Assembly (NCBI RefSeq): GCF_003704095.1
Contig: NW_020846086.1
Coordinates: 62,001-126,000, forward strand
Direction of reading: 5' to 3'
Source of the DNA: Pocillopora damicornis
Taxonomy: Eukaryota
Length of the DNA stretch: 64,000 nucleotides
Positions within the stretch are counted from its first letter, which is position 1. Every line of letters starts with the position of its first letter. Positions 17,774-52,700 of the stretch are shown here, piece after piece. A program made the position numbers and the translations under genes. The notes below the pieces were generated by a model. It made no database searches, was not told where the DNA came from, and saw nothing but the letters and a program-made list of their open reading frames with translations.

Positions 17774-20332
17774 ATGCGTTTATCTTCGAGGTATTGCGCG
17801 GCTTTTGTTCTAGTTTTCCTATGGACTACAATATACGCTAAAGACTTTGAGAACGAGTATGAAATTATCGATGGAATTAGAATCAAAAAAGAATCGATTG
17901 TAACGATAAAAGAGCAAGACGACAAGAAACGTGAAAAGAACGGACGATCAGACTTGGATGAAGGCGAAGAAGTTTCGGAGGAAGACGAAGACGATGATTA
18001 TGACGATGACGAGGATGATAGCGATGATGGGGGAGAAGGAGACTTAGAAACAGCCAAGCATCTTCCAACAAAATGTCATGGTGAGTCTAAATAAACGAAG
18101 CTGCCCAAAGGAAATAATGAATGCTTGTTATTGCGAGTGTAATACTTTGTACTCTTTTCAAGTTTGTAGACTATTGGCGGTTGAAGTTGAGAATAAGCTT
18201 ACAAAGATTGCAAGGATTAGAAAACCCCGGGAGACCAGGCCTCCGATTTACTACAAAGAGTAAGAAATATTTCTTATTTATGATTGAAATAACTCATTGT
18301 TAGCTCATTTGTTACAGTATGTTATTCGTGCATCTTAAAGTAAGCAAAAAGGATCCTCTCAGACAACAAGAAAAGGATATTTGTGAACTTTGAGGGAACG
18401 AAGATCTCTCTCATCGTAATGCACCATTTTTTTAACACCAGACAGCCTTCATTTTTTATTTCTCTTCCATAACAGGGAACTAGTTATGTTGAGGGTTACG
18501 GAGAACATATGTGACGCAATGACGAAGTACAGCGTCAGAGCAAAGGTTCCTTTTAGATATAAACGGGGAGGTAAGTACCGTTCCAAACGTAAAACAACTA
18601 TAGTCAAAGGGGAGAGGCTTAGGCAGGCAATATTGAGTTATTGATGTTGGCAAAAGGAGGAGTTTAAGTGTAAATGCGGGCTTGTTTCAGCAAGCTGACG
18701 AACCTTGCACTAGTTTCTGTAGCATGAGTCGTTTAGAAGTACCTATAGTAAGTAAATTCCTAATTTATAGGTGAATGGTGCACTAGTTTATCAAAGATTA
18801 CACCCTTGCAATCCTTTTCAGTCAGTCGCTATTCATTTCAATGCTTTCTCTATCAATTTAAAGTTCATTGATCACGCGAAGGAAGTCATAAAAATAATAC
18901 TACAGATATATATCGTGTTGAAGACCAGTTTCTCGTGACTCACAAAAACTTTTAGTTATCACGCAGCAAACGATAAGATTGCGCTTGCGGTCCACAGATA
19001 AGCCGCTTGTGGGACGCGAACGGTGTATAGGTTTTAAAGGCGCTACGTTCCGAAATTCTAGTTCAAGTGTAGAGGAATATTTGACGAAGAAACACCAAAT
19101 AAAATTAAAGTTTAAAGCAAAAGTAACAAGGGTAAGTAATGAACACGGAATGCTAATGGTGAACTTGAGAGATAAGGATTCTTTTTTCAAGATTGGTTGA
19201 ACATAATGGTTGAAGATGGCTTCTGGAGTAAAGAACAACAAAGGGTACAAACAAGGCTTTAATACCTACAGCATTCAAATCATTTACAGTCTGATATACC
19301 GCTTGTGGATTTTTTCGTTTTCAGTAAAAAGTATATTCCGCAAGCAAATTGAAGAGATCACAAAAGATTCTCGAATTCAAAAGTGGGTGTTTGCTACGCC
19401 AGAAGAGGACATTGATGATCCAACAGGCGAAATAAGACGGCTCAAGGAACAGGTACGCCAAATTCAAATTGTAAAAAAAAATTGATTAAGTAAGTAAAAG
19501 TTTTCATTTGTTAAATTCACTATAGGTATAGCATTTACTTTAACTTTGGTAACTTTCTTCTATTAAGTTACTACCTAGAACTGAATTACATTAAGTGTAT
19601 GTGAATATGACATATTTCAGGGTTTAAAACATTCTTCTAATATAAATTAGATTTTTTTTTTCTGCAGTTGGTGCTCTGTCGTAATGACTGATATCGAGAG
19701 AGTATCAGCTGATATTCTCTGCTGATATCAGTTGTTTTCTCATTGTACTATGTAAATCGTGCTTTGTCTATGTACACATGCGACATTGACATACAGCTAT
19801 AGTCCCGACATTCTGATAATCAAAACTAGTAGTGGTTAATCTCTTAAAATCTACCAGCTTACAAACTAGCTTTAGACAACACACACGCGACTACCGGTAT
19901 CAGTTGAGAGACCAACAGCGAAAGCAAACAATTCTCAACCTTTTTTCCATTTTTCCTTTGATATAGTGCCACGAAATGTTAAAGGAGACGCAAAAACTGT
20001 TCATCCATTGGTTTATGAAGGCGCAATCTCGTGACTTGACCAAATGGCTCTGTGCCAAGAGAGTTTTAGTTGATGACGACAAAGGTATGTATGTTTATTT
20101 CCCTTAAATAGTTGCGACGTACATTACCATTTATTTCGTTAACCACCGGCACAAGGCTACTTTCATGCAATTAACATCTCAGTTACAGTCTTGATAAAAT
20201 TTATTGTCTTTTTCTTCCACAGGATGCCTACAAGTTGATATGCCCAGGAGTAACCGAGTTGCAGCATTGAGACAAAAGAAAGAAAAGATCGCAGAAAACA
20301 AGACAACTAGTGCTTCGCATGAAGAACTTTGA
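17774..20332 (+). CDS. Canopy family (CNPY3/4-like) saposin-fold ER protein, paralog B, 6 exons, 284 aa, C-terminal HEEL
   Basis: Exons 17774-18080, 18163-18259, 18476-18570, 19325-19452, 19967-20084, 20223-20332 (855 nt). Signal peptide, acidic tract, then LPTKCHVCRLL..ENICDAM..IDDPTGEIRRLKEQCHEML..KWLCAKRVL..GCL..HEEL*. Intron positions and phases match paralog A. Confidence 0.9.
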
Positions 20333-20475: not shown

Positions 20476-23400
20476 CTAAAACTCGTCAGCGTCTGCTAAA
20501 TTTGTTAATAAATAAAACAATCGTCTCTGCTCCAGAAGGTCATTCAAACTTCCTTGTTCAAGTATGCGCCCGTGGTAAATAAGAATAATGTAGTCTGCAG
20601 TTTCAATTGTTTGTCTCCGTCTTGTGAGTATGATACAGGTTTTATCTCGGCAAAGGATATCAGTGGCATCAGTCACAGCCTGCGGACCAAAATAGGTCAA
20701 TTCATCGTGTTATTTTACTTCTGAGGCAGTCATGAAACTCATTGGAAAACGCCGCGAGATTGGGAAGAAAACTGGCCAACCCTCTGACAGACTGACCGAC
20801 CGACTAACAGACTGAATGACTAGCTGGTTCACTGACTGACTGAACAACTGGGTGAGTTACTAAATGCCTGACTGAATGCCTGACTGACTGAATGACAGAC
20901 TGACTGACTGACTGACTGACCAACTGACTGACTGACTGACTGACTGACTAGCTGGCTCACTGACTGACTGACTGAATAACCTAAATGCCTGACTGACTTA
21001 CTGAGTGACAGACCGATTGACTGACTGACTGACTGGCTGACTGACTGACTGATTGATTGACTGAATGACAGACTGACTGACTGGCTGGCTGGCTCGTTGA
21101 CTGTCTAACGACTGACTGGCTGGCTCGCAGACTGACTGAACGACTGACTGGTTGACTGACTGGCTGACTGAGTATGAACAACCGGACAAAGGAACTGACT
21201 GGCTGGTAATAGGACTAATTGACTGACTGTTTACGTGATTCACATAGGTGGACGACTGAGTTAATGAATGACTGAATGAAAAAATGGACAATAGATGAAC
21301 GCATTGATGAACGCATAATCTAACAGTCGTTCGTTCTAATCTCTTTCCTTAAATATAATCATAATACCTGATCTTCTTCTTCCAGCTCATCTAAAATGAT
21401 GATTGGCGATTCTCGGATAATTGCCCGTGCTATAACGATCCTTAGTTTCTGACTATCGCTCAATTTGATTTGATCTTCATCAGGAATTGTTTCATAACTC
21501 TAAAACAGACAGCGAGAACGAACCATTGAAAAGGTTGAAAAATGAATAACTTATCTCCATATGGAGCTATTTTTCAAACCTTTACTTTTTACATGATTAC
21601 AATCAATGAATCAGGAAACTAATGAATCACTATCAACGATAGAAACGCAGACGTTGCTATACCACATTCCTCAAACTTTGGCAAAAAATTAAAAGAATTT
21701 AGTTATGCTAACCGAAGACTTTTGGAGAACTGATGTTTTACAGTGCTTATATAGGGAGGAACACTTTCTTTTATCTCTGCTTCATTATTTCAGCCTTCTA
21801 TTTTATTGGCTCGAACGCAAACAATTGTTCTCTTTTGAAGATCAACTCTAAGTATTTGTCACTCAAACTGTAGCAATCTGTACGATTTAGTTGATCAGTT
21901 CGTTACCTTTGGCAAATCCACGATAAATTCGTGTGCATACGCTGAATAGGCAGCGTCCTCAATTTCCGTTTGTGTCACGAGCCTTCCTTTGTCGCCATAA
22001 GCAATATTCTCAGCAATACTGTAATGTGACAGGAAACATCGATGGGACACTACTGCATGATGGGATCGTAACCAAGAAAGATCCAGATTGCGAATATCTG
22101 CTCCATCTAAAAGCTAAAACGAATGCAGAGTTAAAAACGTATATTCAAACGAGCCCTAATCGCTATAATATATGATAGACGACGCTGCGGGCAAAGGAGA
22201 ATTTAGTATACACCATTAACTACAGAGCAAGCTTAGTTAATTGAGGGACGCATTCAGGAAAATAGAGGTGTCCATTTTATGAAGACAACAGATGATAAAG
22301 TCGTAAGAAAATGTTTTCAATCAAGATCAAAGACTGCGTCCATTGAATAAGGCAGTTTATCCTTTTAAGATCTGCTTTCGTGCTGTCGCTCTTGTTGCTG
22401 GTTTTTTTGTTTGTTTGTTTGACTGTTTGTTTGCCTGGCGCGGGACGGGATTTGTCGATGATGCGTTCAAAAAAGCAAATAACTAACATTTTGTTGAAAG
22501 AAGATCACTGAATGGAATTTTTTAGCTCCATACAAATATATGAGGCAAAGTTACATCGTTTAGAGAAGTGTTTATTGTAAACTGTAAAATGAAGTTATGA
22601 TGTTTACCAAGTTTCCCTTGACAGGATCAAAGAAACGCTCCAATAAAAGTTCAAATGGATTCACTTTATCGCTGTCCAGTTGAACAATAGCCAGTTTTTG
22701 TCCACTGCTGACCCTCACGCTCAGCTGGCTCAGTAACGGAGCGTCGTTATGGAGTGGATCTGGAAGTTCAACATGTTTAAACTCCAAGTTTCCTTCAACC
22801 TCATCCTGCGTGAAAAATTACTTTAGTTTAAAAACTTTCAAACTCTTCTGATACCAATAACCAGACTTTTGATCGCACGTTTATTCTGTTATTCATATAT
22901 TTAAGTGATTCCTTACAAAATCTTTTTTTGGTAAAACATAAACAACTTTTTCCATTTATTAAAGCATCTCTTAACTTTCATGCATGACATCTCGGTTGGA
23001 AACTCTTTAGTTCACTTGCAAATCAAAGGAACGAGGCAGAAAGATTATTGAAGCCTCATTAACTAATGGTAAACTCACAAATTAATCAATGTAAAAGCTC
23101 ACCAACTTGTCACCAATGTGATCTTGCACGTCTAGTGACTCGTCGTCAAAGAGTCTGTTCAGCGAATCTTCATTCTCTTCATGCGCGTGGGACGGCGCTC
23201 GTGAACTTGACGTTGCATACGAACCAAACAGTACAGTCATTAACACTCTAAAACAAAAGGAGAAATATTTTTATCACATAAACTGCGGTGTTATACAGGG
23301 ATTTCCAGCTCTGAGAAAAGCCACAACAGCACACGTGAAAAAAAATCGTATTTTTTCACGTGTGGTGATATAGCCAATCGGCTGCTGACACGTCACTCGC

Positions 23401-32400: not shown

Positions 32401-35400
32401 TCTCCAGTACCTGCCATTTGCATCACACCAGAGATGATAGCCATAAATATCTACAGAGATAAAATGAACAATTATTTCTTCACTGATCATAGCTCTACAA
32501 TGTGTCAATTGATCCAGTCGAGAATTGATGGTCATCATGGTTAAGCTGAACAGACATACAGACAGATAAATGGGCAATCTTTAATCAATCAGTAATCAGC
32601 AATCAGTAACTAAATGCAATAAAGTTAAAACATGACCAACCGTCATCACAGCTCCTGGAGTGATACTTCCACCTGGTAGTAGAGTAGAACTATACCTAGA
32701 TAGGTTCCAAAAAAATTCAAGTTTATTCCGTATCAAATAACTGAAAAGCAGAGTCCATTGGACAGGGTCGCATCTTCACGACTGGATTGACTATTATAGG
32801 TTTACATTTTTTAAATAGTTATTAAAATGGGGTCGGGATTTTTGGTGTTAAAAACTTATTGTAAGTAGGAAATTAATAATGGAAAGATTCGTGGGTTAAA
32901 AAGTTTTCGATGAATTTCGTGCTGTTGTTTTAATATTTGATATTTAACATTCCGTTCTTCACTAAGTTGGGATAGCGAGAATTACATTTTCCAAAAGTGA
33001 CCAAGATGGGATTAATAACTGACTAAAGAACAGACTATAATGGGGTAGAGGTTCTGACAGACCAGCGGTACATACCTAAGCAAAAATTGACTCACATAAC
33101 CACTCCCGGAAACACATGTCGAGAAAAAATTGTATTACATTGTCTTAACTTTGATCCACTTTTACTTACCAAAAACCCAAGCCGAGAAAACCAAAAGCCA
33201 GTAAAGTGGTGAGTCCTTTTTGCACACCAAGAATGAGACTTTTGAGTTTATTGAGATTGTTTGCTGCTTCTACTTTACCAGAATATCTGCAGTTTAACAA
33301 AGCTTTATGAACAAGGAACTATAGACAATTCGTTGTCAGGAATTAGGATACAATGCAATATGCAAAAATATGAGAGAAATGTCATTTTTACTTATCGTTT
33401 TGATCGACTATGCGATTGACCTACTAACTGACTGAGGCACCGACTAACTGTATTATTGACGACTGACTGACTGAGTGACTGACTATATTACTGACGACTG
33501 ACTGACTGAGTGACTGACCATATTACTGACGACTGACGACTGACTGACTGACTGTATTACTGACGAATGACTGACTGACTGTATGACTGACGAATGACTG
33601 ACTGAGTGACTGACTATATAACTGACAACTGACTATTACTGACGACTGACTGACTGACTGTATTACTGACGACTGACTCACTGACTGTGACTGACGACTA
33701 ACTCACTGACTGACTTTATTACTGACGACTGACGACTGGCTGACTAACTGACTGTATTACCGACGACTGACTGACTTTATTACTGACGACTGAATTACTG
33801 ATGAATGACAGACAGAATGACTGACTGACTGACTTTATTACTGAGACTGACTGACTAACTGTATTACTGACGAATGACTTACTGACTGACCAACTAACTG
33901 ACTGACTGTATGACTGAGTGACTGACTGACCGATTGACTGTGTGACTGACTGGCAGACGATGAGTGGTTTAATGACGATTGACAGACCGCCTGATCACCT
34001 GGGTTTTTCAATTCCTGATTGACTGACTGATTGAATGACCGTTTTGACAGCCTGACTGACTGAAAAAGGTTATTGGCTCGATACAAACGATTGGCAGCGA
34101 AATTATCTTCCTTGAATTGAAATATCAGGGGCTCAGTTCATTTGATCATGTGTTGTTATTTACTTGCCTAGCCTTCTCTAACTTCTCCCCGGCATATGAC
34201 GCCACCGCTTTTATCGACCCCATGCTCTTCCTGGCCAATCCACCGGCGCGTTTCATCAACTCTTCCTTCTGCTGCATGACAAATGTTTGAACCTGTTAAA
34301 AAATGGCGGATGAATAAAATCAGCATCGCACCGGCGAAAACGTAGATCTTCATTTACCTACCATGATTTACACTGTGAATTGCTATCGTTCGTGTCTCTG
34401 ATTGGACGAACGATTTAATTTCACAGTCTTTCGCTTTGTACTTCACAGTACAAATCTAAGTATGTATGAAATAAAAATATTTGCTTGAACGATTTTTTTT
34501 CACTCGATCTGAAGCATCAAAAAACTTACCCACTTACCTCACTCGTTCGTTTTTTCAGTTGATGCATTGCAACTCGGGAGTAAATCGTTCGTGCGCATTT
34601 TCCATGGAATAACGTTTATCCGTAAATTTCATCACCGTATTAAGACTCTCCGTCATATCTACACAAAGTCCATTTGTGAAATTGGAAATAGGTCGACATC
34701 AGGTGGATCAACACTCTACCTTACCTTGTCGGTTATTCCCTGAACTGCTACTAGCACAGGTCCAGCAGCCATCATCACTAACGTGATTTTCCAGTTTTCT
34801 ACGAAGCTGACCAGAAATCCCGACAACATACTCGACAAACTCTGAATCATGTAAGCGATTTCTCCTCCTAGTCCCCCGCTGAGCGCGTTCAAGTCGCTTT
34901 GACTTATAGCTTCCTGTGGATCTCTGTGAAACAAAAATAGTCAGAAGTTATTCTAATATAAATACATTATACCTTAAACCTTAGTGCTTAACCCTTAATG
35001 TTACGCTTTGATTAACACCCCTCCTCCCAGAGACTCCTAAGTTTCTAATCCCTCCCCACCCCCGTCTCCCTCTTTGGAGTGAATCGTGACTTCCAGTCTA
35101 AATGCATCATGAGATGTATAAATATGAGATTTTTTAGTGCTTGAGCAATATTTTCATTATAAAAGGGTCTGTTGCAAGATGTCTTTTACTTACGTGAGGC
35201 CTTGTAGGTTGACCACGCCTTCGTGTATCTTGGTATCATAAAATCCTGGGTCCTTGTCCATCATTGTATCGGTTAAATTCTCGCTCAAGTTTCTAACCCC
35301 TCGCTCGGAAGCTATGTTCCACATCACCATCTGTCCGTATGCAAAAATCAAGGTTCCAATGGCGGCGTAAACATAATACAGAGCATATTTGCTCATGTTC

Positions 35401-37778
35401 TCCTCAATTCTGTCCTGTATCAAGCGGCAAGATCTCGTGATGTTTCTTAGCGTGTAGTTTACGTTATTTGTTTCAGGTAGGATTGTGGGTGTGGGAGCCG
35501 CAGGTAATTTCTTAATACTCTGGACTTGACCAACATTAATGCCGTCATCGGAAAACTTTTGATTGGTTTCTCTGTTTGTTCTATTTGACGGCTGTACTGT
35601 TGATTTCTTGTCAATTACGTTCCTCTCGGTTTTTTTTCTTGTGTTATCGGAATTCATCTTCATTTTAGACTCACTTTTCTCTCTACGATATGCTTCCATT
35701 GAAAAAGGCTTGTATGTTTTCCTTGTTTCCTCATGCTTGCCGACAAAATGTTTCTCGAAATCCAATTGAGAATCAACGACAGGTTTAGAAGTTTTACCTT
35801 CGATGAAAACTTTCTTTCCATAAGACTCAAGTTCTCGTTTAGTTTTCCTTGAATTTCCAAAGCCCTCTTCCATTAATTGCTTTTCCGAACTTGCGTAACC
35901 TAATTGGTTACTGAAAATGTCAGCCTCACGTTTGAAATAAAAGAAACTTACATGACTTTCTTTCCCATTTTTTTTAAGAGAACTTTTCATTTCATGTTTT
36001 CCTTCATTAAAATGACCGATGATTTCCTCTCCTTTTGCTTTACTTGTTTCTTCTTCTTTCGTTATTTCGTTTAAAAACGCTTTCTCTTTCAACTTAACCA
36101 TTTCAACACGCGTTCCCATGACAATAATTCCCATCAACTTTGTTCCGTTCAAAGCAGTGCCGTTTAGAACTACTGAAGGAGATGTTGCATTATTTTCATC
36201 AAGAGCCGATTTATGCTGCAGTCTTCCATTCAAACCAACAACCTTCACTCTAATTCCAGTCTCGTTTACTATCACTTGAACAGACTTTGTTTTTGTGGCA
36301 TTTATAGCTGTTAACCCACGGGGCTGAACCATTTCCAAGGTCACCACATTCCTTAGCAGTAAATTTGTAACGCTTTCGTTTAGAGTACAATTCCAGTTTT
36401 CGCGGATGACAAGCTCGTCATTAAGTTTTCCATAAATCATGGCTCCCAGAGAAGGTATCAAGCCGTTTGCAACCGCCATGAGGGACCCACATATCATAAG
36501 AACTTGAGAGACAAGATCTGAAACAAACTAACGATTGTGCAGGGCAATGAATCATACTTCAGTTTTTTTTCCTTTTTCATTATTAATTACCGTTTTCAAT
36601 TGAGCGTCAAAAGTTCACGCTCCAATTAGCATTGGCCTTACATCACTATACTGTGTAATTGGTCTGTAGAACTTGAGCCATCTCAACTAACTGATGGAAA
36701 CTTGGAACAATCACAACTTGGTCTCTCGCTTTTCACTGCATATGTGATTATTCACCTGTTTCTACACTGATTTCTCACTAGCTCCTTTGAGCATTTCTAA
36801 TCAAAGCCAAAGGCTCTGCTCCAAAATGAGATAATAACCGATTCTTGCAGTCAGTGAGTTTTTTAAATATGAACAAGCCTTACTGACCGAGCGCCACTTG
36901 CATAGGAGTAATGAATATGGATCGCCACAAGGTCAGTGTATCATCAAAATACGACAGGTCCACCGTGATTTATCAAATTAAACAGGTCAAGTGAAGAGGT
37001 GTTAGACCGATTTTTCATGGAGAGGGCGTCGTAACGAGAAACCAAAGTAATTATAACGGCCAAACATACCAGAACAAAGGTAAATTTAAAAAGGAGATAA
37101 TTACATCCCATAGAAAGCCACTCAACTGCTTCGTCAAACGATGGAAATCAGGAGTGATTGGGTTTTCGTTGGCATGTGATGAGGTCGAGAACGAAGCGTG
37201 TTTTCTCTTGACCAATCTCATCCCGTAAGGTAAAAAAAACCCCACAGCAATCCCGATGTTCGAATAATAATCGCTCCACCCATGCGTCAGTGATCCAGGT
37301 TTCTCTATAAGAGTAATCTTTATCATAATTAACTCGAGGTTTGGCCGATTAAAATTCTTTTCTGTCGAGCTATCGAGCCCAGCAGTATTATGTTATCAGT
37401 TTAGAGCACACTTCTCTTAATAACAAAGAAAACATTTGACAATTTGGAGATGCATTTGATCGAACCCACGCCAACAAGATTCTGAACTAGCCCGATTAAC
37501 TCGTTTAAAACGCAAAATGGATCCAGCCGCCAAACTTGACTTATCAATTTGTTTGACAGCAGGCAATAATTAGTTGTTGTTATAACCCAAATTGTATGAT
37601 CATTTAACCAAGGAACCAAATTGACTGTCATAAAACCCACTTGACAGGTTCATTACCCGTAGGTTACATCTAGGAAGCTTCCAGTAACAGAAAAACTTGA
37701 GCTTTGAATTGGCAAACTGAAGAGAATTAAAGCTCTTACCTTCCCCGGTTTGTTTTCCTCACCCTCAACCATTGTCAT
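20476..37778 (-). CDS. ABCB1/MDR-family full-length ABC protein (TMD-NBD-TMD-NBD) with degenerate NBDs and two giant insertions; 5' end uncertain
   Basis: About 25 collinear exons. TMD1: 35194-36517, ~34724-34923 ([14 protein letters not shown]), ~34170-34291, ~33169-33287, ~32641-32695, ~32339-32451. NBD1: ~31963-32070 (FHYPSRP), ~31634-31759 (GDKGSGKS), ~30979-31182, ~30426-30596, ~29852-30013. TMD2: ~28009-28107, 27486-27563, 26195-27409, 25822-25899, ~25144-25332 ([15 protein letters not shown]), ~24128-24268 ([10 protein letters not shown]), ~23103-23247. NBD2: ~22608-22805, ~21908-22111, ~21368-21499, 20476-20679. The ATG at 37778 and the linker exons are tentative. Confidence 0.85.
20780..21280. 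repeat. Degenerate (GACT)n microsatellite in the last ABCB intron
   Basis: Long imperfect ACTG/GACT array. Confidence 0.9.
25926..25989. repeat. Perfect 32-bp tandem duplication
   Basis: GCCGTTACTTTCAATTTTCTTAACTTCAAGCG twice, just upstream of the acceptor of ABCB exon 25822-25899. Confidence 0.9.
28700..28870 (-). mobile_element. Decayed tRNA-derived SINE
   Basis: Minus strand begins GAGCAGGGATGGCACAGTG.., followed by a degenerate B-box (GGTACGATTC). Confidence 0.4.
33420..34062. repeat. Compound (GACT)n / TATTACTGACGACTG repeat in an ABCB intron
   Basis: GACT array interspersed with a recurrent TATTACTGACGA unit. Confidence 0.9.
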
Positions 37779-39497: not shown

Positions 39498-40742
39498 AAT
39501 TTTATCGCCGTATAACTCACAGAAAATTGTGCCATCATAAGTTATCTTACTAGAGCAACAGACAAAGTGATCTTCTGTGGGTTTTCATCTATTCATTGAT
39601 ACCTCTGTAAAAATGTTTAGAGAGCACTCCAAAAGCTTCAGATACACCTGCCTTCAGCTCGCGCACTGAAAGATTTTTCTCGGACGTGATCTTTAACCCC
39701 GCGTGGGTCATTACGCCGATAGAAAGTGGTCTTTTGCTTAACATATGTACGGTTCTGACCCTTCTTCACCGGGATCTTGAATTTTAAGGACCTCGAGGTC
39801 TCGAAAAAAGGCAAAAGCAATACAAGCAGGTTATTTTTAAAACATCGATCTGACTTTGGGCTATTTAGCAAGGCCGACAGTTGATGCTGTTGTTAACTGA
39901 TGCGCAACCTACAGAAGTAGTAGTTTCTATCCCCTGAACCGATATGATTAAGTTGGAGGTTAAGCAGACTCGAATCAATTTCATTCAGTTTCTTGTGTAG
40001 GAAACTGTTTTTGGGTTACACTACAAAGCCAACATGAAAAAGTAACTTCTCCACAGACTTGAAGACCAGACTTGAAGTTCTCAATTCGTACAATTATCCT
40101 ACTTTTTTCTGGTCATTGAAACTTTGAACACTACCTTTGAAGAGAAAAGTAGATCTCTTTCAGTTAATCTTCCCTAGGGTTAGGAAGAATGATGTCTTCT
40201 GGCAGAGGCTGATGTCAATTGACGGGGAATGAGGAGTTACGATTGTATTTTCCCTTACTTTATTACAAAGTATTTTTTAAGAGACCTTGGCCTAGATTGT
40301 GGACTCGAGGTGGGTAAATTCATGAGATCTCGCCAGATATGGTTGTCGGAAATTAACAATCGACCGCTCTGGGAGTTTCATGGGTCAAATGTAAAAAGGA
40401 AACCACTTCTTCATAACCTTTGGACAACTGCAAATTTTATCGAAACATGAACTTAAAATCGAAATTAACAATTTTGAGAAGTTTTCCGAATATATAGTTA
40501 TTTTCATGTGCTTATGTATTGATGTTAGAAATAATAACTTCTGATAAACAAGTAACAATTCTTTCCAAGACAGTTCTTAATAAAGAAGGATTTGAAATCC
40601 TTCAAGGTCAACACAATCCTCTATCTTTCAGAATACCCTTAGTAAAACACCACCCGCTTCTAATTTCCAACTCTACGCACAGTTCGCTTTCTCTTACATA
40701 ACCATATGAGACCGCCTACCGAAAGATTCAAGTTTATCACAC

Positions 40743-43700
40743 TTATTGAATGTCTTGAACAGCCCGTTTCTTAGATCTCGGTGATTGCCAACGTCCCCTC
40801 AGAGCCTGCACTACGACCGACGTGACATCCGTCAGGCTGTGGTGCGCCTCAAAAATCTCCTCACTTGACAATGCTTGTAAAACATCAGGTGATGCAAGAT
40901 CTTTAAGGGAACGTAAACAGTTACAAAACCTCTCTTTATCACTGTCTCCTCCGATAGATGTCGTGGAAGCAGAGGAATGATCAGTACTCTCCTGAGCCAC
41001 CACAACCGTTTCTTTAGGTTTGGTTCCCTTAATGTTTATATCCCCTGCATCTCCCAAATCTTTCTCTCCAAATTCCACATTTTCTTCTGGATATGACAGC
41101 ATTACGTCGGTTCCTTTACACTCTTCGCGCGATTCTTCACGTGGAAATGGCTCCATTGGTTCACAACGAGTTTCAACTTGAGGGCGAGAAATTTCAGCGG
41201 TCGCTTCGATAATGTCAGAGTCATGCGCAGAACGACATGACCCCGTGGTGCTCGCCTCCATCCCCGTCTTATTTGCTCGTGCTTCAACAGTGAGTAGATC
41301 AATCACTTTTTCATCATCGACGAAGACAATTTCCGCTTCGCTTCCCTCTGGCCTCACATCGGACGCCATTTCTTCGGTTTCAACAACCAGTGCTAGATCG
41401 GTTTTATTCGACGAGCAATCTTCACTGGGTTTAATCCCTTCCATCTTAGACTCCACAGCCGTTTGCGTACTTTCTGTGCCGCCGGAATTCAGAGGGTCCT
41501 CAATTACAATACCAGCCTCTCCTGGGAAATGCGCATGTTCAGAGGTGGCTACATCTTCTGTTGCGAAGAATTAAGAAAACACGTTACTACGCTGGTCAAA
41601 ATATAAATTACACCTAGAATTGTAGGCTTCGCATACTGTAATTAGTTTTTGCCTTTGTTCTATCTGAGACTAGAAGGGATTGGGCAGGTGAAGGCATTGA
41701 AAAAGTTAAAAACGAAATTTTTGGAAGCAACAAAGAGAAACTGAGACCTTCATTTTTCTTGGCTTCCTAAAAATACAATGAGACAATTTGTATTTACAAA
41801 CGCTGTGAGAATGTGGTAACAACACCAGACATACTAAAGAACGAAGGTCTACTTTAGAGTTAAGTTGAGTATTACCCAGAAAACCTTTCACACACAACGC
41901 TTCTTTTGAGATAAAACTAAAAATAAAACAAAAGATTAGATTTTTCTCAGTCGGATAAACCCAACAGCATTTACAAATGATGACATTTGAAATTTCTTCC
42001 CAATCCTTTATGATTTATTAGGGCTAAAGCTATCATAAATTATTTGTACAGACTTGCAGCTCTCATTTCCGGTAATCCATTTTACTGTAGAATCTTTAGA
42101 TTACCTAACTGGATCATGGGACTACTCTCACCTTCTTTGTTTTCATTCTCTTCCTTCTGAACAACTTCTGCCGTTAACTTTGCCACAGTAGATTTGGAAT
42201 TCCTCCCTCTTTGAATTTGATGGAATCTTCTTAAAGCTGTCTTCAGTGTTGGTACTTTGGGTGATTTGATGGGTAGGTTTTTTACCTGAAAAATTACCTC
42301 TTTTAGCTTGTCTTGTCATCTCGTGAAACTCAGTTGTCCTTATTTATATAAGGTTTGTAAAAACCTTGTGTGACAATTTCGGCGAAAGCTACGGAGCCCT
42401 TTTTCAAAGAAGTTCCACTCTCTACGTTGTGAAAGGAGCATGTAACTTTTACGGCCGGTTATTTAAACAAAGTTTAGCCGTTGTTTAACAAAACTGCGTT
42501 CTAAACTATCGTCAGTTCCGCTGAACCTTTTATCTGAACATTTAATTTTGTGAAGAGTGTCATGAGGGGCGAAAACTAACAATGGAATGAAATTTATTGA
42601 ATCAGATCAACCCTCTCATAGAGAATCCCTGAGGCCCACTGCTTGTGTGAAAACGCGGTTTGGGTTAGACCTCGTTTAAACGACCGGCCCTAAGAGTTTT
42701 TACGATAAGCTGACTTATACATGTACACGCATTTTGATCGGTTCTTCCTTATGATCTATTGTAGGACATTAACAACATTTTACTTTTTCTGTCACATAAA
42801 ATAAATAGCTTCCATATTGCTGTGGGTCTTTACGCCAACAGATCACAGAAGACCTCAAAATGTGGTAAAAACATCAGTGACACACTTGGCTGTGCATCAC
42901 GAAAAACTTTTTTTGTTCTCACTACTGGTAGCACATTGATTGAAAGCCCCGATGTACGACTTTTCTGAAGCAAGTAACTAAAACACAATGCATTTCTGGT
43001 GGCTCTGTTTGTATTACCTGCTCCTCTTTCAAAGCTGACAAGTTTCCAATGGTGTGAATATTCTGCGCACGCACCAAGTGACCCATACCACGTGACCAAG
43101 ACATGGTGAGAATGGAGGGAAGAATCTGTTCAACTGGCACTGTGCAAGACACAAGATCTGGGAACATGCAGTCGGTGGAGTCCTGGGCACTATGGGCGTT
43201 GCTCGATGGTAAAGGTCTCCGCTGAAAAGGATTTAAAAAAAAAAAAGGAAGTAATTTAGTGATTTAGTTATGAGAATTTCAAAATTTGATGTTAGATCAA
43301 GGTAATAACCTGTTTACTGGATAATGTATAGATAGAAGAAGGAGAAGCTACTTCTAAATAATTTCTGGGAGTTAAAGGGAGTTACGTACTTGCTTAACAG
43401 CCGTGAATGGAGAAGAGCCCGATGTTTTAAGGTGTGAAGCAATGGTAGTTAGTTCAGCGGTTTTTTCTTGCAAGTCTTCACAACTGTCATCTTTAACAGG
43501 TAGAGCAAACGAAACTCTTCTGACCTTGATAATCAAAATAACAAACAGAAAAAGCACAATTTGGTTAGCGCATGAGACACACAACACAGCAACATCATTT
43601 GCTGATTAATATTCACTAGCAAAAACAGAAAGATCGCTTAAACCTTGCTTTTTTCGTTCGTTACAAAACAAAACCTAAGTTTTGAATAAAACAGTTCTTG

Positions 43701-46700
43701 TCAGATGGGTTGACAACTACCTAGAATCGAAATAAGTTCTAACGATAATCAGAAATATTTTAAAATTCCGACGAAGTCGTCCTTGAAAAATAAAAAACGA
43801 GAAAAATATCGACTCAAGAAGAAATGGTGGAATTTCACTCTTTAGAAATTAGGCCGTTGAGGAAAACGCTCTCCTTTACCAATTGACAACACCTGAAAAT
43901 ACTAGATGTGCAATAAGATAAATAACTACATTAATTATTACTACCTTTCCGGGAGGGGAGGGCGAGTCAACTCCTTGCTTGATCGCATGGTATCTTTTCA
44001 AAATACCAGTTGTGGGAGAAACTCCCGGGGAATTTCTTCCGCGGAGATTCAATCGACACGGACTACCCCCTGCTGCAAATGGACGAAGGAACTTGCTCTT
44101 AGCGTTTAAGACTGGAGACGAGGTTTCATCCCTCGTTACGCCAGCGACAAATGGCTCAGCGGGTTTCTCCATGGGTGTTTGGTCATCCAGCTTTTCAGTC
44201 TCTGCCAGTTGCTGACCACTGAGCATAATTCTGCTGATCTCTTGCTCTGTGGGCTCTTCTTGTGGTTTTTCGAGCGTTGGCGTCATCTCGATCTTCTGTT
44301 GAAGTTTTCTTCTCGTTCGCCCGGCAACTGGCGAAACTTTCCTCTTAGTTATTGGTTGTTCTTCAACTTTCATAGGCGAATCAGAGTCGAAAAATTTATC
44401 TTCTTTCAGAACATCACTCTCAAGTTGCGTTTCCAATGCCGTATCAACGTTTTTACCATCAGAATTCCCTAAATTATTCTGCTCTCTTTTCGAGTTTCTC
44501 TGAATACTTGCCCTTGTTTGAATTAAACCCGGTAGAATGGAGTCGGGCGGGATCGTGATTTGTCTAAGGGACTGAAAAGGGGACTCAAAGCTTGGCGTTT
44601 GTGACGACGGTATGACGTCAGGTGACATCACTTCGTCATCACTGTCCACCTCATCTTTATCAGTTTGCTCTGTTTCGTCGCGCAGGTTTCCATCTTCATT
44701 TTGGGAAGATTCCACTAATTCGACAATTTCACATTCTATTCCTTCGACCTCTCTATCGGCTCCTTCACTGATCTTGTCTTCCATTTCTACCCCATTTTCT
44801 TTTGAGTCTTCGCCATTATCCATATTTCTCCCAACTTTATTTTCCGTTGTTGCCCTTTCAATGGCCTCCGCTTTGTTTTCGTTTTCGCTCTCGCTTTTTC
44901 CTGTTCCTCGCACATTTGAGCCAACCTGGAGCTCTTCCTCGTTCTGACAGACCAATTGTTTCTTGCTACCAGGCGACTGAGGTTTTTCTTCTTCTACAAA
45001 GGGGAAGAGAGAAAACACATTAAACAATTTTTCAGTCGATTGTAGTCTCACGCTATTAGTCGCCCCTTGCTACCGGAACTAATTTTGCTTCCATTATTCT
45101 GCTCAAAGCAGCTAAGAGTATTACTAATCCTCTGAATGGAATGCCGCTAGGTCCACAAATTCATCAAAATTCCTTAACAGTTTCCTGATTCCGACTGATA
45201 CTCTTGGGCAGAGAAGGGAAATGTAAGAATTAAGCATCTTGTCCAAAAGTACAACGATATGACACGGCCGGGGTTTGAATCCGGACCTTCCAATTTGGTT
45301 TACAGTCCGCTGACCACTAAATCTCCGCGCCACACTAAACAGTAATGAAACACTAAGTTTGATTGGCTGATTAGGAGAGGATTCAACAAAAATGCTGGAG
45401 TTTCATTAAGTTTTAAAGTAAATGGCAAAAAAGGCAGTGCAGAAGGCTAATGGAAGTTCGTTTTTTAACATAACGTCATTAATTTCAGAGTAAGTAGGCG
45501 GCGATTTCGTTTGACATCCAAGGAGAATTCCACCGGTTGCCAGCTCTCACGGAAACCCTTTAAAATCATCCATAAAAGAGAAGCTCACCTGGTGAACTGT
45601 TTGGAGTCGTGTCACCACTATATGGGAGAAATGAAAAAAAGAGATTCTTGGTTATTGTGACACCTCACACTGGCCTACAAGAAGGAAGGAATGGATACTC
45701 ACGTGACATCTCCATGTGACGTAAGAGTGAACTGTGAAAATTGTGAGCAGTCTTGTGAGTGGTCAAGCGCATTGTAGAGTGCAGGAACATCACTGTAGTG
45801 AGGAATAAAAAGGATACAAATTATCAAGGGTCCAATGTGCTAAAAATAGGTGGTATATTTCATATGTTGTGAAGGCTCACGTCTGTTAAGTCTGATTTTT
45901 TCAATTTTTTCGATAAAAACTTCATCATCGAAGAGTCCGATTGATACTCTGATTATTACCTTGTAAAATTAAGGGTTTACTACCAAGGTAACAAAATTAT
46001 ACAGTACTGAATAATAATAACAAAAACAGGGTACAGGGTGTAAATTGAATTACATCCACAAAGTGTTTCTTCGTCCATTGATTCAGAGTCGAATTTGAAT
46101 TTTGGGTGTTAGGTTTCGAGGAAGAAGCAGCGGAGAAAAACCCTCAGAGCAAGGACGAGATTCAACAACAGACTCAACCCTCATGTGATGTCAGATTTGG
46201 GAATAAAACCCCCTTCATCGGGAGGCACGAGCTCTCACCATTTTGCCAACCCAACTCCCCATCCCTTGACCATCCCTGTTCCTTATAAATAACGTGTACC
46301 ATGAACATTTTGCCCGAGTCTAATTTTACGGATTAACGATTTATCATGTTCTGCAACGACTTATTTCTAACCAAAATTTCCGATCGGATCGATTTTTTTT
46401 AAAATGAAAGTTCCAGAAGCTAAATATTAATAAGCACGAAATATAAAGTAATTTTTTCAACCATTTTCTCTGGTTTACAGCAGAGATTTTGCACTGGATT
46501 CCTTCAAATCCTCGAGAATAATACATCCCTACCCAAAAAGACTGACATTAAAACGACATGAAACAAAAAAGAAAATACCCGTATCCCTTCCCACATCTAG
46601 AGTTTGCTTGTTTGTTTGTTAAAGTTTTTCAAGGGATTAGCGGGGTTTTATATTACAGATTTGTATCATTCAAGTTTCACAGCCTTACAACTACTTTTTA

Positions 46701-49700
46701 CGTTTCACTATTTACAAAGAGTGCACAAAATATTTTGCAAAGAATAATCAAGTTCTTATTTTTTTACCTTCTACTCCGCATGATTTCTTTCTGATGTTCA
46801 GTAAGCACGCGCTTCTTTTTCGGAGAAGGGGCAATCATGACGTATTCCTATAGACAAGAAATACTCACTTTAAATTATATTATTATGTGATTACTTTTCA
46901 GCGGAGAGATGGTTACAGAGTCAATCACGTGCATACTCGTTATGTGCATACTTGTCACGAGCATAGTAGTTCACGTGTCACTGAAATGGTCAGCATTCCC
47001 TTACAGATATCAACTAACCTGGTCATCGTCGTCGAACTTGGACAGCGGCAATTTTCTCCTCACATGCGTATTGGCCGGGGAATTTCTAGGGCGTCCAACT
47101 TTTGGTGAGCGACTTATCTGAATGCATGAAGAAATTACAGAAAAATAAAGACAAACCGGAAGCAGTAACACCAATACTGTATTCATCCTGATTTTATCAC
47201 TTCCTTCGAGTACACTTTAGTGCTAACTCTCTGAAAAATATAGGCATTGAGCCATTAGTACCACCAAGAATGTCGAAAGACTGTTGCGTGGAGATATATT
47301 CTCGCTTGGTATATACTAAAACAATGGATAGCGTTGAAGGCGCACTCTGATTGGATCCTCAACTCCGAATATCCTGTGCTATTCACCTCCAAGCAACTCG
47401 CGCCCGAAGATATTGATATTGATCAGATATTGTGATCGTTGCGGAATAAATGAGTGAACATTATATTTTGTGCTATATCATCTCACTCTTTTAGTGTATA
47501 TAAAAACAACTATTCACTCCAGCGTCGGTGGCTAGTGGTAGATATTTACCTCGCCACTTCACAACTCAGTAAATATCTACCACTAGTCACTTTGGTAAAT
47601 AGTTGTCAATTGAATACACGAGACGCTTCCAACATCCGTGGTCGAACCAGCAGGCAGTATATAGCTTTGCTCTTTAACTTGTCCGCTCTGTCTTGATCGG
47701 TAAAGCATCCGACCAGAAAATCGAAAGGTCCCGACGATAGGGACAAATGTCACACGTCTCTTTATTCGACGATTGAACTTTAAAGCCACCACATTATGAT
47801 TAATTTCCTATTTGTTCCTATTTCAACTGGAGATGTATTTGCAAATTTCACCGCAAATGTCGGTTTTATCTCTAAAAGCGTTCATACAGTCAAAATGTAA
47901 ACGAATTCTTACTCTTTTAGGTGAAGCATTTTCCACCACTTTCTCAACACTCAAGGCCTTGTGTAAGAAACTGCCCTTCAACTGTGGGGATCCTCCTGAA
48001 ACTGACGTATGCTTACGGCGCTGAGGAGAGCCTAGGATACCATATGGCAGCGGTTTCACAAGGTTTGCGTGCTGGGTAAGTTCTTCAGACTATTATGATG
48101 TTGAGAGAAGAAAAATAATTAACGACCGCGACACAGATCAAGCGACTAGAGATGCTCATTAAATCTAAGTTGAAGCTAGTCACTCCCAGGAACGACCAAA
48201 AGGGAATTTCTCCAAACGATAACAATACATCCCCAGGCGAAAGGGAATATTGCTTGATCTTGCACTAAAGTTTAAGCTAAAATCACACGAAATTAATGCC
48301 AGACAACCGTAGAGAACGTATCATCGAATCTTAGAATAACAGGGGTAAAGGAACTACGTTTTTTCTTTCCGCCAAACGGAACGGTCGTTTAATTAACGAA
48401 ATAGACAAAATATGGAAAGATGTCAAAGTACTAAACCAAGATAGAGAGTAAATAGTTGAAGTAAAAACAGACCAACAAAATAAACCTAGAAAAAAATTTA
48501 GCGTGGATTTTTCAAGATGCAAAAACTTGAACTGTAGCATGCCGGAGTCCTTCAGGTATCACTGTTAGATGATAATCTAAATAATGATTGCAAACTAAAA
48601 AGAGAACAAGCACAACGGTGAAATAAGGGTTATTAAGGGGAAACAGAAAATGAACTACTTACTTCGAGATCCAAATGTGCGTCTTTGTCTGAAATCTGAA
48701 AATAATAATAAAAATTTTAAGAAAATATATAACAAAACAAAAGAAAGTTGATCAGAATAAACACGTTTTTTTTCTTTCATTTACTTCATGTTCGTTTCAT
48801 AGCCACAAAGCACATTTAAATGTACTCTAAATATTCTGCTATGAAAAAATAACCAAGTCGGCAATCGTACCTTAATATTTTCCCAGCCTGGCAAAGTAAG
48901 TGACATTTTATCTTTGGCAATCTGAAGAACTGGTCTGGGAAAAAAAAATCATGAACATTATCAACAGGTGATACTTGGGGAGATAAAGAAAAAGTATCAG
49001 CAAGTTGATTAAAGACCCTAAATTGTTAAAGCTTCTCTGTAGCCGATTGTCGAACTTAACCCTTACAGTTTTGACCAGCATCTAATTTCCTCTTACCGTA
49101 TCACCCCATGAATCACTCATTAACGTCACGAGAATAAGGAAATGATTACCAACTGAAGCAACTCCTGATTATTAAATAAATTCTCCTTCTCGATACCCTT
49201 AGAAACGTATAGTGAACAGTACGGAGAATATATACGCTGATGTTGGGGTGTAAAGGGTCACATCCTTTCGAAAACACAGCTAGAACTCCATTACAAGTCA
49301 GACCTTTCCCTACTTTCTTATAACGGATCTCCTGGACCAGTTTAAGTTTAAGGTCCCAGAAAACAAACTCTCACAACAGATGGATTGTTGATGGATTGTT
49401 ATCAGCTATTAAAAAAGTAACCACACTGTCTATTTTGATGTCATTTCCAGAGGTAATTTCTTTTATATACCTTAAGGTTTCAGGATACTCCAACGTTCGC
49501 GAATGAGCAAAAGTAGCATTCCAAAACATGACAGCGTGGTTCTTGATACTCCTTTTAGGATGAACTAACGTCACTTCCTGTTAAGAAAAATTAATACAAA
49601 AATTACGTTATTAAACCCTTGGATGAAGGCTTCACTATTAAATAGAAGCTTATTTACACTTTCACGCTCCCTATTTCCCTAATTATCGCCCACTATCCGA

Positions 49701-52700
49701 GACAGTCGGGGATTTCAAGATATCGAGTTTTAATTTTTCGAAAAATCTGGGACGATCGGGAAATGGTGAAATCGCCGATAGTGTGGAATTTTCCAGACAA
49801 ACTTCCAAGATCTGATTGTTAATTTTCCCCTCTAGCTACAACAACTTTCCTTGTAGATTGGTTACGAGAATTTGCTGTTCGTTCAAGATAATATCTTGCA
49901 CTTGATAAGTTTGAGTATTCTCACTACCTGTTTGCTGGATAATGTATAGATACATAAGGGAGAGGTTACATGTTAATCACTTCTGAGAGTTCAAAAAGGT
50001 TCAAAAGGACAGAATAAAAGCGCTTCATAACACACCAGGAGAGGAGACATGACAGATAACAGGTCAGAGTTGTACGGCCCACCATGGCGGCTCTGTATGC
50101 AGGTGAGAATATCAGACCACAGCTTCTCAATCTGGAAAAAATGACATTGTGCTTAACACGCCACACCAAGAAAAAGCCAATCATCTCTCATAATCTTGAC
50201 TTGAATAAGAACTTTTAATGATTCACCTCTAACCATGATGGGTAAAAATGAAGAGGCAGCGTATAGGGTACATACATCGGTGCAAAAAAGTAAAGAATTA
50301 AACATGAAAATATCTGAAGTTCTACCCTACCTTTTGAATAAGTCTTGCAGAAAACAGCCTCTTGTCCAAAGAGCTTTCAGTGATTTTCGTGCTGCGTGAG
50401 AAAAAAAAATCACCACCTTTTGTACATGCAAATTAATAAATTTACTTATTTCCACGCAGTTCTTTCTTCGCAATTTCAAATTTGTAACTTCCTTAGGTCC
50501 CATTTGATCTCTTGTTTCCTCATTAAGGGTTTTTTGTGCAAGAAATAAACTGTGTGTTTTAAGTCATCTCACATACCAAGCATAACCATGACGATACGTG
50601 GCGATTGGGGTTATGGCATTACAGCCCTTGTTCATAAAGATGAAAACGTCTAACCATTGGTAAAGTAATCTTGAACACAAAAGAATCAATTTGGTTCAAA
50701 TGAGTGCTGGTCTTGACACTAGCTCAAACCTCCAACATCGTGCATACCAGTCCAACACTCTACCAGTTTTACTAAACAGGCAACAGTTTCAAAGCCTCCT
50801 TACACTTGCGCAAAGATCGATGATGTCTTTGGTAACACGCAGAAACGGAACCGCTCTGAGATTATAAAAATAGCATCATACACTGTTTTACCTTGTGTGC
50901 GCATTCTCTATGTAATGCACCAGAGCAGAGCTCAGAGTCTTCAGAACAGCAGTTATGGTCGCAGTTCCATCGATGTGAACAAACAGGTAAGACAGCTTGT
51001 CAATTAAGTTCGTAAGAGCAGCTGCTAGAATACCAAGGGCTTGGGTTGAATCCTAAGACGATAATATAATCAGTGCGTTACTAAAACTTTTAGTATATGA
51101 TTGGCTTTTTTAAGATTTAGTATGCGTAATTTTAAGGCGAGTTAGGTGCAACAGTTGTACTTTTTACGTCTTCTTTCATCATCAACTAATTATCTCAATA
51201 AAATTAAAACCTGGAGTAATGGGACGTTCCAGTAATCTGTAATTAAAAAAATTTGAGAGACATTTTCTGAGGTAATCAGCCCTCAGAGAGAGATATGAAT
51301 AAAGGCGTATCTTTCGGCCTGGAGCGCAGTTCATTAACCTTTTAAAATCTAATTTCTCACTACAATATCACTTCTGAATTACACATTAAGGTAATGAGAA
51401 TAAAGGAAATGGTCAGCAGGGAAGGAATCTTTTGATTGGAAAACAAATTCTCCTTGTCAGCACCTTAGGAAATATATAAAAACAGTGTGGAGAATATGCA
51501 TACTGATGTTAGGGTGTAAAAGGTTACCCATCGAGCTACTGTGTCTCCCATGCAGGCAACTTAACTATCAAGAGAAATAAAGGCTTCCAATTATTAATTT
51601 TATTCTGATTGGCCAAAAGCGTACGGTAAATTTTCGAAATAAGCGCCTCGGACGTCATCTAGCACCAGATTAAAAAACAATCATGTCAAGGACACTTAAG
51701 GTCATGGGTAATCATGCCATGTATAACCGCGGTGAATGTTTTCTAAGGGTATTCATGTCAAGTTCGCACGCTTTGTATTGCTTACAGATTCGTATATTTT
51801 TACAAGTTTGAAAATAAATTATCAGTTCCACTCACTTTGGTAACCAATTTGTTTTTCTTTCAATTTATAATAAAACAACTATTAGATTCATTTTCTCGGT
51901 AACGAAAATCAGAGCCTCAGCCTTCAGCTTCGGCTGATAACCCCTGCCTTGACCTTGATTATCCTGGATATTACAAAAACCTCATCAAATGATTGTTAAG
52001 AGTAAGGCGATGAGAACAATATTTCTCATTATTACCTTACTGTTCCTCGTTCTCTCACATGCAGACAGTAACTTGGCTACCACGCTAACCATGCTCGTCA
52101 TATTGCCCATGGGCCGTTGGAATCGTTTATTCCACTTAGTAGGGGTAGTGTTGGGTGACTTTCCTGATGCTGTGGTTGCCATGTCAAACAAACTTGGAGT
52201 TGAGAAATCAAGGCATTCTATAGCCACCACAATGAGACTGACAAGCGTGTCAACAAAAACGACGCCCTGAAATTTAACGAAAACAACTTCTATGAAGAAA
52301 GTACAAACATGTGATCATCAAAACATCCAATTTTGACTGATTAACATGTAAGGGAGCAAAACTGTACCTGAAATTAGGTAAAAATTGTCAGTTTTCTACA
52401 GAAATACAGCGGGAAAATAGAGAATTGCCATTATTAATACTAAGTTAAGTTAAAATTTTACCGTACAATTGTTCCACTGAAGAGCTCACCATACCTTAGA
52501 TTTCCAGTCACCCTCTATTGTAAGAATCTTTGCGCACAATTCTTCACAGCAAATGTTAGTTTCAGCCGTGGGAACAAGAGCAGCAGCGCGAGAAAAGGAA
52601 CGGTACAGCTGCACCAGAGTCCTGCCCACCTCTTTGCCGAGAGTCTGCACATGAGAGAAGCATCAAGGCAAAGGAATAAGGAAAAGTGATTCTACGGAAA

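Follow-up and report, generated by a model that had tools for sequence, protein, structure and literature searches.

When an ABC exporter has lost the motifs for hydrolysing ATP and carries large added modules on both faces of the membrane, what work is left for it to do? The question is raised by a gene on the minus strand of a 64,000-nucleotide stretch of the Pocillopora damicornis genome (assembly GCF_003704095.1, contig NW_020846086.1, positions 62,001 to 126,000 of the forward strand; hereafter "the window", in whose coordinates all positions are given). RefSeq names the product of its Oculina counterpart "ATP-dependent translocase ABCB1-like", and an initial annotation had drawn attention to a giant first extracellular loop (ECL1) between the first two transmembrane (TM) segments. 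In this report, we find that a glycosylation-rich, Cys-bracketed ectodomain and a cytosolic Pro/Gly insert are indeed mounted on a 12-TM ABCB scaffold, and that the whole is expressed and conserved in other corals. It is a real and conserved protein of the repurposed-ABC kind, and apparently an undescribed one. With roughly even confidence, we propose that this ABCB1-derived protein of stony corals, its ATP-hydrolysis motifs lost, acts as a non-pumping sensor or scaffold.

The giant first extracellular loop

ECL1 comprises 345 aa (36428-35394), among which are 10 N-X-S/T sequons and no more than two Cys, at loop positions 14 and 334, just as had been claimed; only 4.5 sequons are expected from composition-matched shuffles (p=0.008). 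The loop is encoded in exon 2, within a minus-strand open frame of 445 codons, and the proposed contiguity of this exon is borne out by RNA. A single spliced contig of 2050 nt from run X2 reads 37812-37740 / 36527-35194 / 34923-34723 with GT-AG joints, a contig from X1, a separate study, also covers 35194-36528, and two more runs cover the exon piecewise. No cryptic intron was seen in exon 2 in the X1 and X2 contigs; because contigs lose rare variants, a minor shorter splice form may exist. The length of the exon does require correction, from 1324 to 1334 nt (36527-35194). The AG acceptor of the 1324-nt version would break the reading frame set by exon 1. The RNA contig uses 36527, the equivalent of which is also used by the Oculina RefSeq model and by a canonical paralogue. 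Further, the exon 2 borders have the same motif and phase as those of a 380-nt exon in the canonical ABCB1 paralogue L002. Thus, the loop expanded within one ancestral exon.

Fourteen homologous loops were measured: those of the window, of its Oculina orthologue (P0001), of eight unnamed proteins and of four metagenome loci (L018-L021). They are not independent, and the four loci are closely related. The loops span 142-569 aa, compared with 22-72 aa (median 33) for canonical ECL1, the latter measurable by pattern in 27 of 107 canonical sequences. In all but one, a first Cys follows TM1 by 13-14 residues and a second precedes TM2 by 10-11; P0020 has no Cys, and four loops carry a third, two places ahead of the first. 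Twelve of the 14 show sequon enrichment at p<0.01. What is conserved is the large size of the loop and its two ends, and not its length.

The metagenome loci reveal how the loop is built. Their loops, of 173 aa, join the beta-rich segment directly to the stalk, the whole charged middle being gone, and in L021 every exon from TM1 up to the end of the locus at TM10 is intact, those of the Pro-rich insert among them. Thus, the loop consists of a conserved core of ~170 aa (Cys, beta-rich segment, stalk, Cys) and a dispensable middle, in which the window sequence is only 9-16% identical to P0003-P0006, P0008, P0010 and P0022. The Pro/Thr-rich stalk of the initial annotation is present, but that composition covers only ~10 residues within a conserved stalk of 47. 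The fixed spacing of the two basal Cys leads us to predict that they form a disulfide, for which the structure model offers no support.

Several observations concern the wider set of homologues. P0020 and P0038 represent a distant form, perhaps from a different cnidarian branch or from a second paralogue, in which the loop has 142 aa and lacks Cys, and a Pro/Tyr/Gly motif is conserved ahead of TM2. In Oculina patagonica, the gene is present twice (P0001, P0210, P0211, P0212), as near-identical copies with close locus tags on one 33-Mb contig, compared with the one copy seen in the window's 234-Mb genome assembly. Unnamed records (P0012-P0019, P0021, P0023, P0027, P0029-P0033, P0035-P0037, P0039, P0041 and P0042) hold numerous short copies of the 3' end of exon 2 (stalk, TM2 and first intracellular loop, ICL1) that are apparently frameshifted, suggesting that in some corals this part was repeatedly duplicated and then decayed. 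The Porites model begins past the front half of the first transmembrane domain (TMD1), and the loop thus falls outside it. A search with the Oculina core gave 2953 matches, of which the best 120 listed hold only Oculina and Porites from this group; the ESM Atlas returned only generic ABCB clusters for P0102. When longer proteins were searched for homologues by means of the loop alignment, there was no match, which is weak evidence.

Ancestry, ATP sites and selection

A full-length TMD-NBD-TMD-NBD order (NBD, nucleotide-binding domain) with ABC_membrane (PF00664) and ABC_tran domains was confirmed. The best sequence matches of the Oculina orthologue in the PDB are ABCB1 and ABCB4, and 21 of the 27 introns lie at most two residues from an exon edge of one of two canonical paralogues, with tblastn edges as proxies. 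By these sequence comparisons, the gene is a descendant of an ABCB1-type gene. An in-frame stop immediately upstream of the start codon, which itself lies ~21 residues ahead of TM1, means that there is no TMD0 or N-terminal extension. Two paralogues in the same genome agree closely with canonical Stylophora MDR1 in each exon compared, one of them being 96% identical to Stylophora pistillata MDR1 over one exon, and we count their retention in favour of the proposal above. Identity of the window protein to canonical ABCBs is only 24-46%. In a quick tree, which does not place the group's branch point, the stem has ~4 changes per site and the tips 0.1-0.2; such a long stem with short tips suggests a change of job followed by constraint. 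In passing, we note that the deposited model of the Stylophora MDR1 record P0106 apparently lacks the TM8 exon and includes intron-derived residues past the third intracellular loop (ICL3).

The NBDs had been described as dead, a term that suits NBD2 but overstates the case for NBD1. In NBD1, the Q-loop Gln is replaced by Lys, the signature reads LTSYQ for LSGGQ, the Walker B Asp-Glu has become Glu-Glu, and the H-loop position has no His, the residue being displaced; the A-loop Tyr and Walker A are kept. In NBD2, the A-loop and Walker A (P-loop) are lost, the D-loop is deleted, the Q-loop Gln is His, the signature is LSDSQ, and the H-loop His is Arg. Neither composite site is canonical, and the protein thus has neither the two sites of a standard pump nor the one canonical site of an asymmetric exporter. 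Since NBD2 has no P-loop, site 2 cannot bind ATP in the usual manner. Site 1 may bind ATP, yet its residues make hydrolysis there probably out of reach. The Oculina and Porites proteins carry the same changes, and L021 those of NBD1.

These losses are not the marks of a failing gene. Ratios of non-synonymous to synonymous substitution rates (dN/dS) calculated against L021 are 0.06 for NBD1, 0.02-0.09 for the membrane parts and 0.10-0.20 for the loop core, with dS of 1.0-1.9, values that denote selection instead of decay. Compared with the Oculina protein, the TMDs are 81-95% identical and NBD1 is 85% identical.

Proposed function

A 12-TM bundle without a working ATPase site, combined with an outer domain, an inner insert and one P-loop, leads us to the non-pumping sensor or scaffold proposed above. 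The protein is likely a surface- or lumen-facing ABCB scaffold, possibly nucleotide-binding, that displays the ectodomain. In the mechanism that we envisage, the basal Cys pair would be bonded as a disulfide and staple the loop above TM1 and TM2, and the beta-rich segment and stalk would together fold as one glycosylated domain, whose binding partner would be extracellular or lumenal. The intact P-loop of NBD1 would hold nucleotide without turnover and thereby set the conformation of the membrane bundle. On the cytosolic side, the Pro/Gly insert in ICL3 may recruit partners and uncouple the dead NBD2. The initial annotation had spoken of a receptor-like layout; as architecture this stands, and a role as receptor is something that we would only infer from it.

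A number of results count against our proposal. Neither a ligand nor a partner was found, nor a localisation or a cell type. The AlphaFold model of the exon 2 product is poor, with a mean predicted local distance difference test (pLDDT) score of 32 and ~25 in the loop, and thus neither a fold nor a Cys-Cys distance can be derived from it. Modelled alone, the beta-rich segment forms seven strands at a pLDDT of ~50, and this model has no significant match among solved folds in Foldseek or VIA. When this low-confidence model was compared with immunoglobulin, cadherin, beta-prism and beta-helix folds, the best Foldseek E was 0.11 and the best Z 3.7, at a root-mean-square deviation of 4.7 over 48 residues. 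The Cys pair in ECL1 also occurs in six of the 27 ordinary ABCBs measured; it is therefore no hallmark of a receptor, nor is the staple unique to this group. In P0008, P0010, P0022 and P0020, the loop core is either absent or cannot be aligned (8-21% identity), and a single conserved binding domain is thus shown for the closer homologues only. Likewise, the NBD losses are shown for the window, P0001, P0102 and, for NBD1, L021. NBD1 retains Walker A and a Glu at the catalytic position and so may hydrolyse ATP slowly, and the strong conservation of the TMDs suits a transport path as well as it suits a scaffold. Separately, a CAP_C beta-helix row for P0006 (E=0.026) fell under the cut-off and was left unused.

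Retained NBD1 residues and conserved TMDs also feed the likeliest alternative, that the protein still moves a solute or lipid, either passively or by slow turnover at NBD1, as a channel, facilitator or flippase whose ectodomain serves as a cap, gate or trafficking tag. None of the 12 TM segments has been lost, and no other part of the protein is as well conserved; CFTR, moreover, is an ABC exporter fold that became a channel. Set against this, the Q-loop Gln, Walker B Asp and H-loop His are missing from site 1, which also has no usable signature from its partner, and site 2 lacks a P-loop, whereas the degenerate exporters treated in the accessible part of PMC7756269 each retain one working site. 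TM6 and TM12 have no basic residues of the pore type. As a further point for a sensor or scaffold, aromatic residues in TM2-TM12 number 29, compared with 32, 38 and 44 in three canonical pumps, counts that use TM ranges from general knowledge and of which the 32 misses most of TM8. We regard continued transport as somewhat unlikely.

Less probable still is a passive structural anchor, in which the bundle would only display a heavily glycosylated, mucin-like loop that coats the cell surface or an organelle lumen and transmits no signal. The fourfold spread in loop length, the low-complexity and unalignable middle, the Thr-rich composition of the most distant loops and the standing of sequons as the most consistent loop feature all speak for a mere coat. 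An anchor of this kind leaves unexplained the constraint on NBD1 and its P-loop (dN/dS 0.06) and the conserved position of the cytosolic insert.

Candidate convertase sites

It had been suggested that proprotein convertases might cut the ectodomain at KR sites. Both KR pairs exist in the window loop, but their number is at chance (2 vs 2.3 expected), and neither fits the strict furin pattern R-X-K/R-R, RKTKR having Lys at P4. Across the family, the strict pattern occurs in four of 14 loops (1.9 expected, p=0.11), KR pairs in 11 (10.2 expected) and [KR]-X-[KR]-R in seven (4.3 expected, p=0.09), the convertase and furin consensus patterns being those of general knowledge. A longer motif, [KR]-X-[KR]-R-X-hydrophobic, which was picked post hoc, is present in five of the 14 (1.1 expected, p=0.004), and in five of the eight loops of at least 300 aa (0.9 expected, p=0.001). 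By alignment, the RKTKR of the window coincides with LKKR, RKKR, RKRR, KKRRRR, KIKRR and KTKR in P0001, P0004, P0005, P0006, P0008 and P0022, at 0.57-0.72 of loop length. Judged by eye, seven of eight long-loop rows have an aligned polybasic site (P0010 does not), which vanishes with the middle segment in L018-L021.

Both KR sites fall in the segment that is missing from four of 14 loops, and cleavage is thus not essential to the family. Convertase cutting is therefore set aside as a central feature, and of the two sites RKTKR is the better candidate. From these motifs, cutting of the long-loop forms is plausible but optional, with perhaps an even chance of being real. The nick would be made by a convertase at the polybasic site in the centre of the probably disordered middle, and the halves would be held by the bundle and the disulfide. 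Such a nick would be a maturation step without shedding; with TM1 remaining in the membrane bundle, a single cut would release nothing.

This bears on a further alternative, a pro-protein from which convertases, cutting at both KR sites, would release an active peptide or shed a domain. The two sites lie 30-31 residues apart in both the window and Oculina, the post hoc motif is enriched in the long loops, and a furin-like gene is reported in Nematostella (10.1101/802215). A P-domain search of the genome gave 17 matches, a domain that alone does not identify furin. Simpler patterns than the post hoc motif are not enriched, L018-L021 lack the segment, and the peptide that the two sites enclose shows no conservation; we consider a pro-protein very unlikely. 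That the locus is an annotation artefact or decaying pseudogene, as the short frameshifted look-alikes in databases might suggest, is refuted here by the spliced RNA contigs, by an open frame of 1895 codons and by the low dN/dS (0.02-0.20) and is scarcely credible.

Comparison with known ABC proteins

The non-pumping protein that we propose can be measured against several known systems. It shares the TMD-NBD-TMD-NBD order, intron positions and a glycosylated ECL1 with ABCB1, ABCB4 and the coral MDR1 paralogues, and differs from them in its 345-aa ECL1 (22-72 in canonical members), its degenerate ATP sites and its 347-aa insert in ICL3. Lacking both the two sites and the short ECL1 that mark a P-glycoprotein pump, it should not, on these features, be filed as one. 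ABCB11 (BSEP), ABCC1 and TAP likewise have a degenerate site on a type IV exporter. They keep one canonical site that drives transport and an ECL1 of <60 aa, whereas neither site of the coral protein is canonical. Two Cys in ECL1 are also present in three fish ABCB11 and three frog ABCB5-like matches. ECL1 of BSEP is multiply glycosylated and mobile, and one of the ATP sites of BSEP is degenerate (PMC7830293).

Similarity by position only is offered by the ABCA family, from which the coral protein differs in membrane fold and family; ABCA proteins are active lipid transporters. In ABCA1 and ABCA3, a large glycosylated exoplasmic domain stands between TM1 and TM2. The first luminal loop of ABCA3 is cut by cathepsin L (PMC4816274). 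No ABCA-type membrane fold or sequence was found in the coral protein, which matches PF00664 and ABCB with only a sub-threshold ABC2_membrane_3 row (E=0.11), and Pfam and Foldseek-type comparisons of the loop found no sequence or fold match to ABCA1 or ABCA3. In yeast Ycf1p, the loop that joins the first two TMD1 helices carries an insertion that is cut by a protease; the fragments remain bound to each other, and the cut alters specificity and oligomeric state (PMC11569179). That case differs in that the insertion has 17 residues, the protease is Pep4p and not a convertase, and Ycf1p is an active ABCC pump.

SUR1 and SUR2 (ABCC8/9) use an exporter fold to sense nucleotides and regulate a partner rather than to pump. 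By analogy, the coral protein most likely works like SUR1/SUR2 without being one. SUR proteins belong to the ABCC lineage, with TMD0, a Kir6 partner and no large ectodomain, whereas the coral protein has no TMD0 or known partner.

No description of the protein was found in the full-text literature, a coverage outside which lie most subscription journals and supplements. An Acropora "ABCB1" (LOC107340542) discussed in PMC6505131 may be this gene or a canonical one. At NCBI, the Oculina copies are listed as hypothetical or "ABCB1-like".

Gene model and neighbouring genes

The coordinates of the gene's features are collected in Table 1. Fourteen of the 27 introns were matched in RNA joints and pieces, a tally for the RNA output displayed (42 more joints lie outside it), and the remainder were inferred by homology to Oculina P0001. 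The RNA runs that carry this stretch are labelled coral or marine metagenome, or by a coded organism. Inside the Pro-rich insert, a 174-nt intron (26461-26634, minus strand) is open and in frame, and its retention would add 58 residues; contigs from three RNA runs splice it out. Introns of the gene also contain repeats (33420-34060, 20780-21260 and 23270-24070), namely two tetranucleotide satellite tracts of the CAGT type and an inverted-repeat element of high copy number.

Table 1. Features of the ABCB1-derived gene in window coordinates
Feature	Position	Strand	Remarks
Whole gene	20476..37778	-	28 exons, 1895 aa, TMD1-NBD1-TMD2-NBD2; open model with GT/GC-AG borders
Exon 1	37740..37778	-	Start codon and 13-residue cytosolic N-terminus
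Exon 2, 1334 nt	35194..36527	-	Encodes TM1, giant ECL1, TM2 and start of ICL1
TM1	36429..36503	-	Homology and hydropathy
Cys 1 (NCT)	36387..36389	-	13-14 residues past TM1; kept in 13/14 homologous loops
Val/Ile-rich, sequon-rich conserved segment, predicted beta	36072..36389	-	7 strands at pLDDT ~50; dN/dS 0.20
Hypervariable charged loop middle, ~180 aa, likely disordered	35535..36071	-	Absent from L018-L021
KR of YFKR-EAD	35928..35933	-	Matched only in Oculina; chance level
RKTKR-ELE, candidate proprotein-convertase site	35835..35849	-	Aligned with polybasic sites in 6 other long loops
Conserved 47-aa C-terminal stalk with two sequons and Cys 2 (35427-35429; 10-11 residues ahead of TM2)	35394..35534	-	dN/dS 0.10
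TM2	35316..35393	-	Pfam ABC_membrane match and alignment
NBD1 exons	29852..32070	-	A-loop Tyr and Walker A (GDKGSGKS) intact; same losses in P0001 and P0102, nearly so in L021
Gly/Pro/Ser-rich cytosolic insert in ICL3, after TM8, 347 aa, two exons of its own	26195..27409	-	Also in P0001, P0102, L021
NBD2 exons	20476..22805	-	Equally degenerate in P0001 and P0102

Three other genes were noted in the window. A convergent gene (17780-20330, plus strand) has a signal-peptide-like start, an acidic run and a HEEL-like C-terminal end; we take it to resemble a canopy/CNPY protein, for which Pfam searches with single exons gave no support. RNA contigs of the 3' end of the ABC gene extend to 20221 and overlap it. 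Upstream (40700-57000, minus strand) lies a gene that resembles RIF1 in its GILK and RRVSF motifs and in exons of acidic, low-complexity sequence; three of its exons, searched singly, had no Pfam match. A ZP-domain gene occupies 4100-6400 (minus strand; ZP-N E=1e-16, ZP-C E=4e-9).

Implications

A bolder version of our proposal would have corals, and perhaps anthozoans at large, turn P-glycoprotein into a new class of cell-surface receptor, in which a stapled, convertase-matured ectodomain binds an outside ligand, the bundle relays the event, a non-hydrolysing NBD1 reads nucleotide state and the ICL3 insert signals to cytosolic effectors. We hold this extended form to be an improbable one, with about one chance in four at best estimate of being right.

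To our knowledge, few animal ABC exporters have abandoned pumping (SUR and CFTR), and those belong to ABCC and keep a working ATP site. An ABCB in which both sites are lost, with large modules on both membrane faces and strong selection across distant corals, would be an independent case. The protein is a testable candidate for a coral surface or organelle protein. Further, the RefSeq name of the Oculina copy means that studies of coral stress may tally the gene as a detoxification pump.

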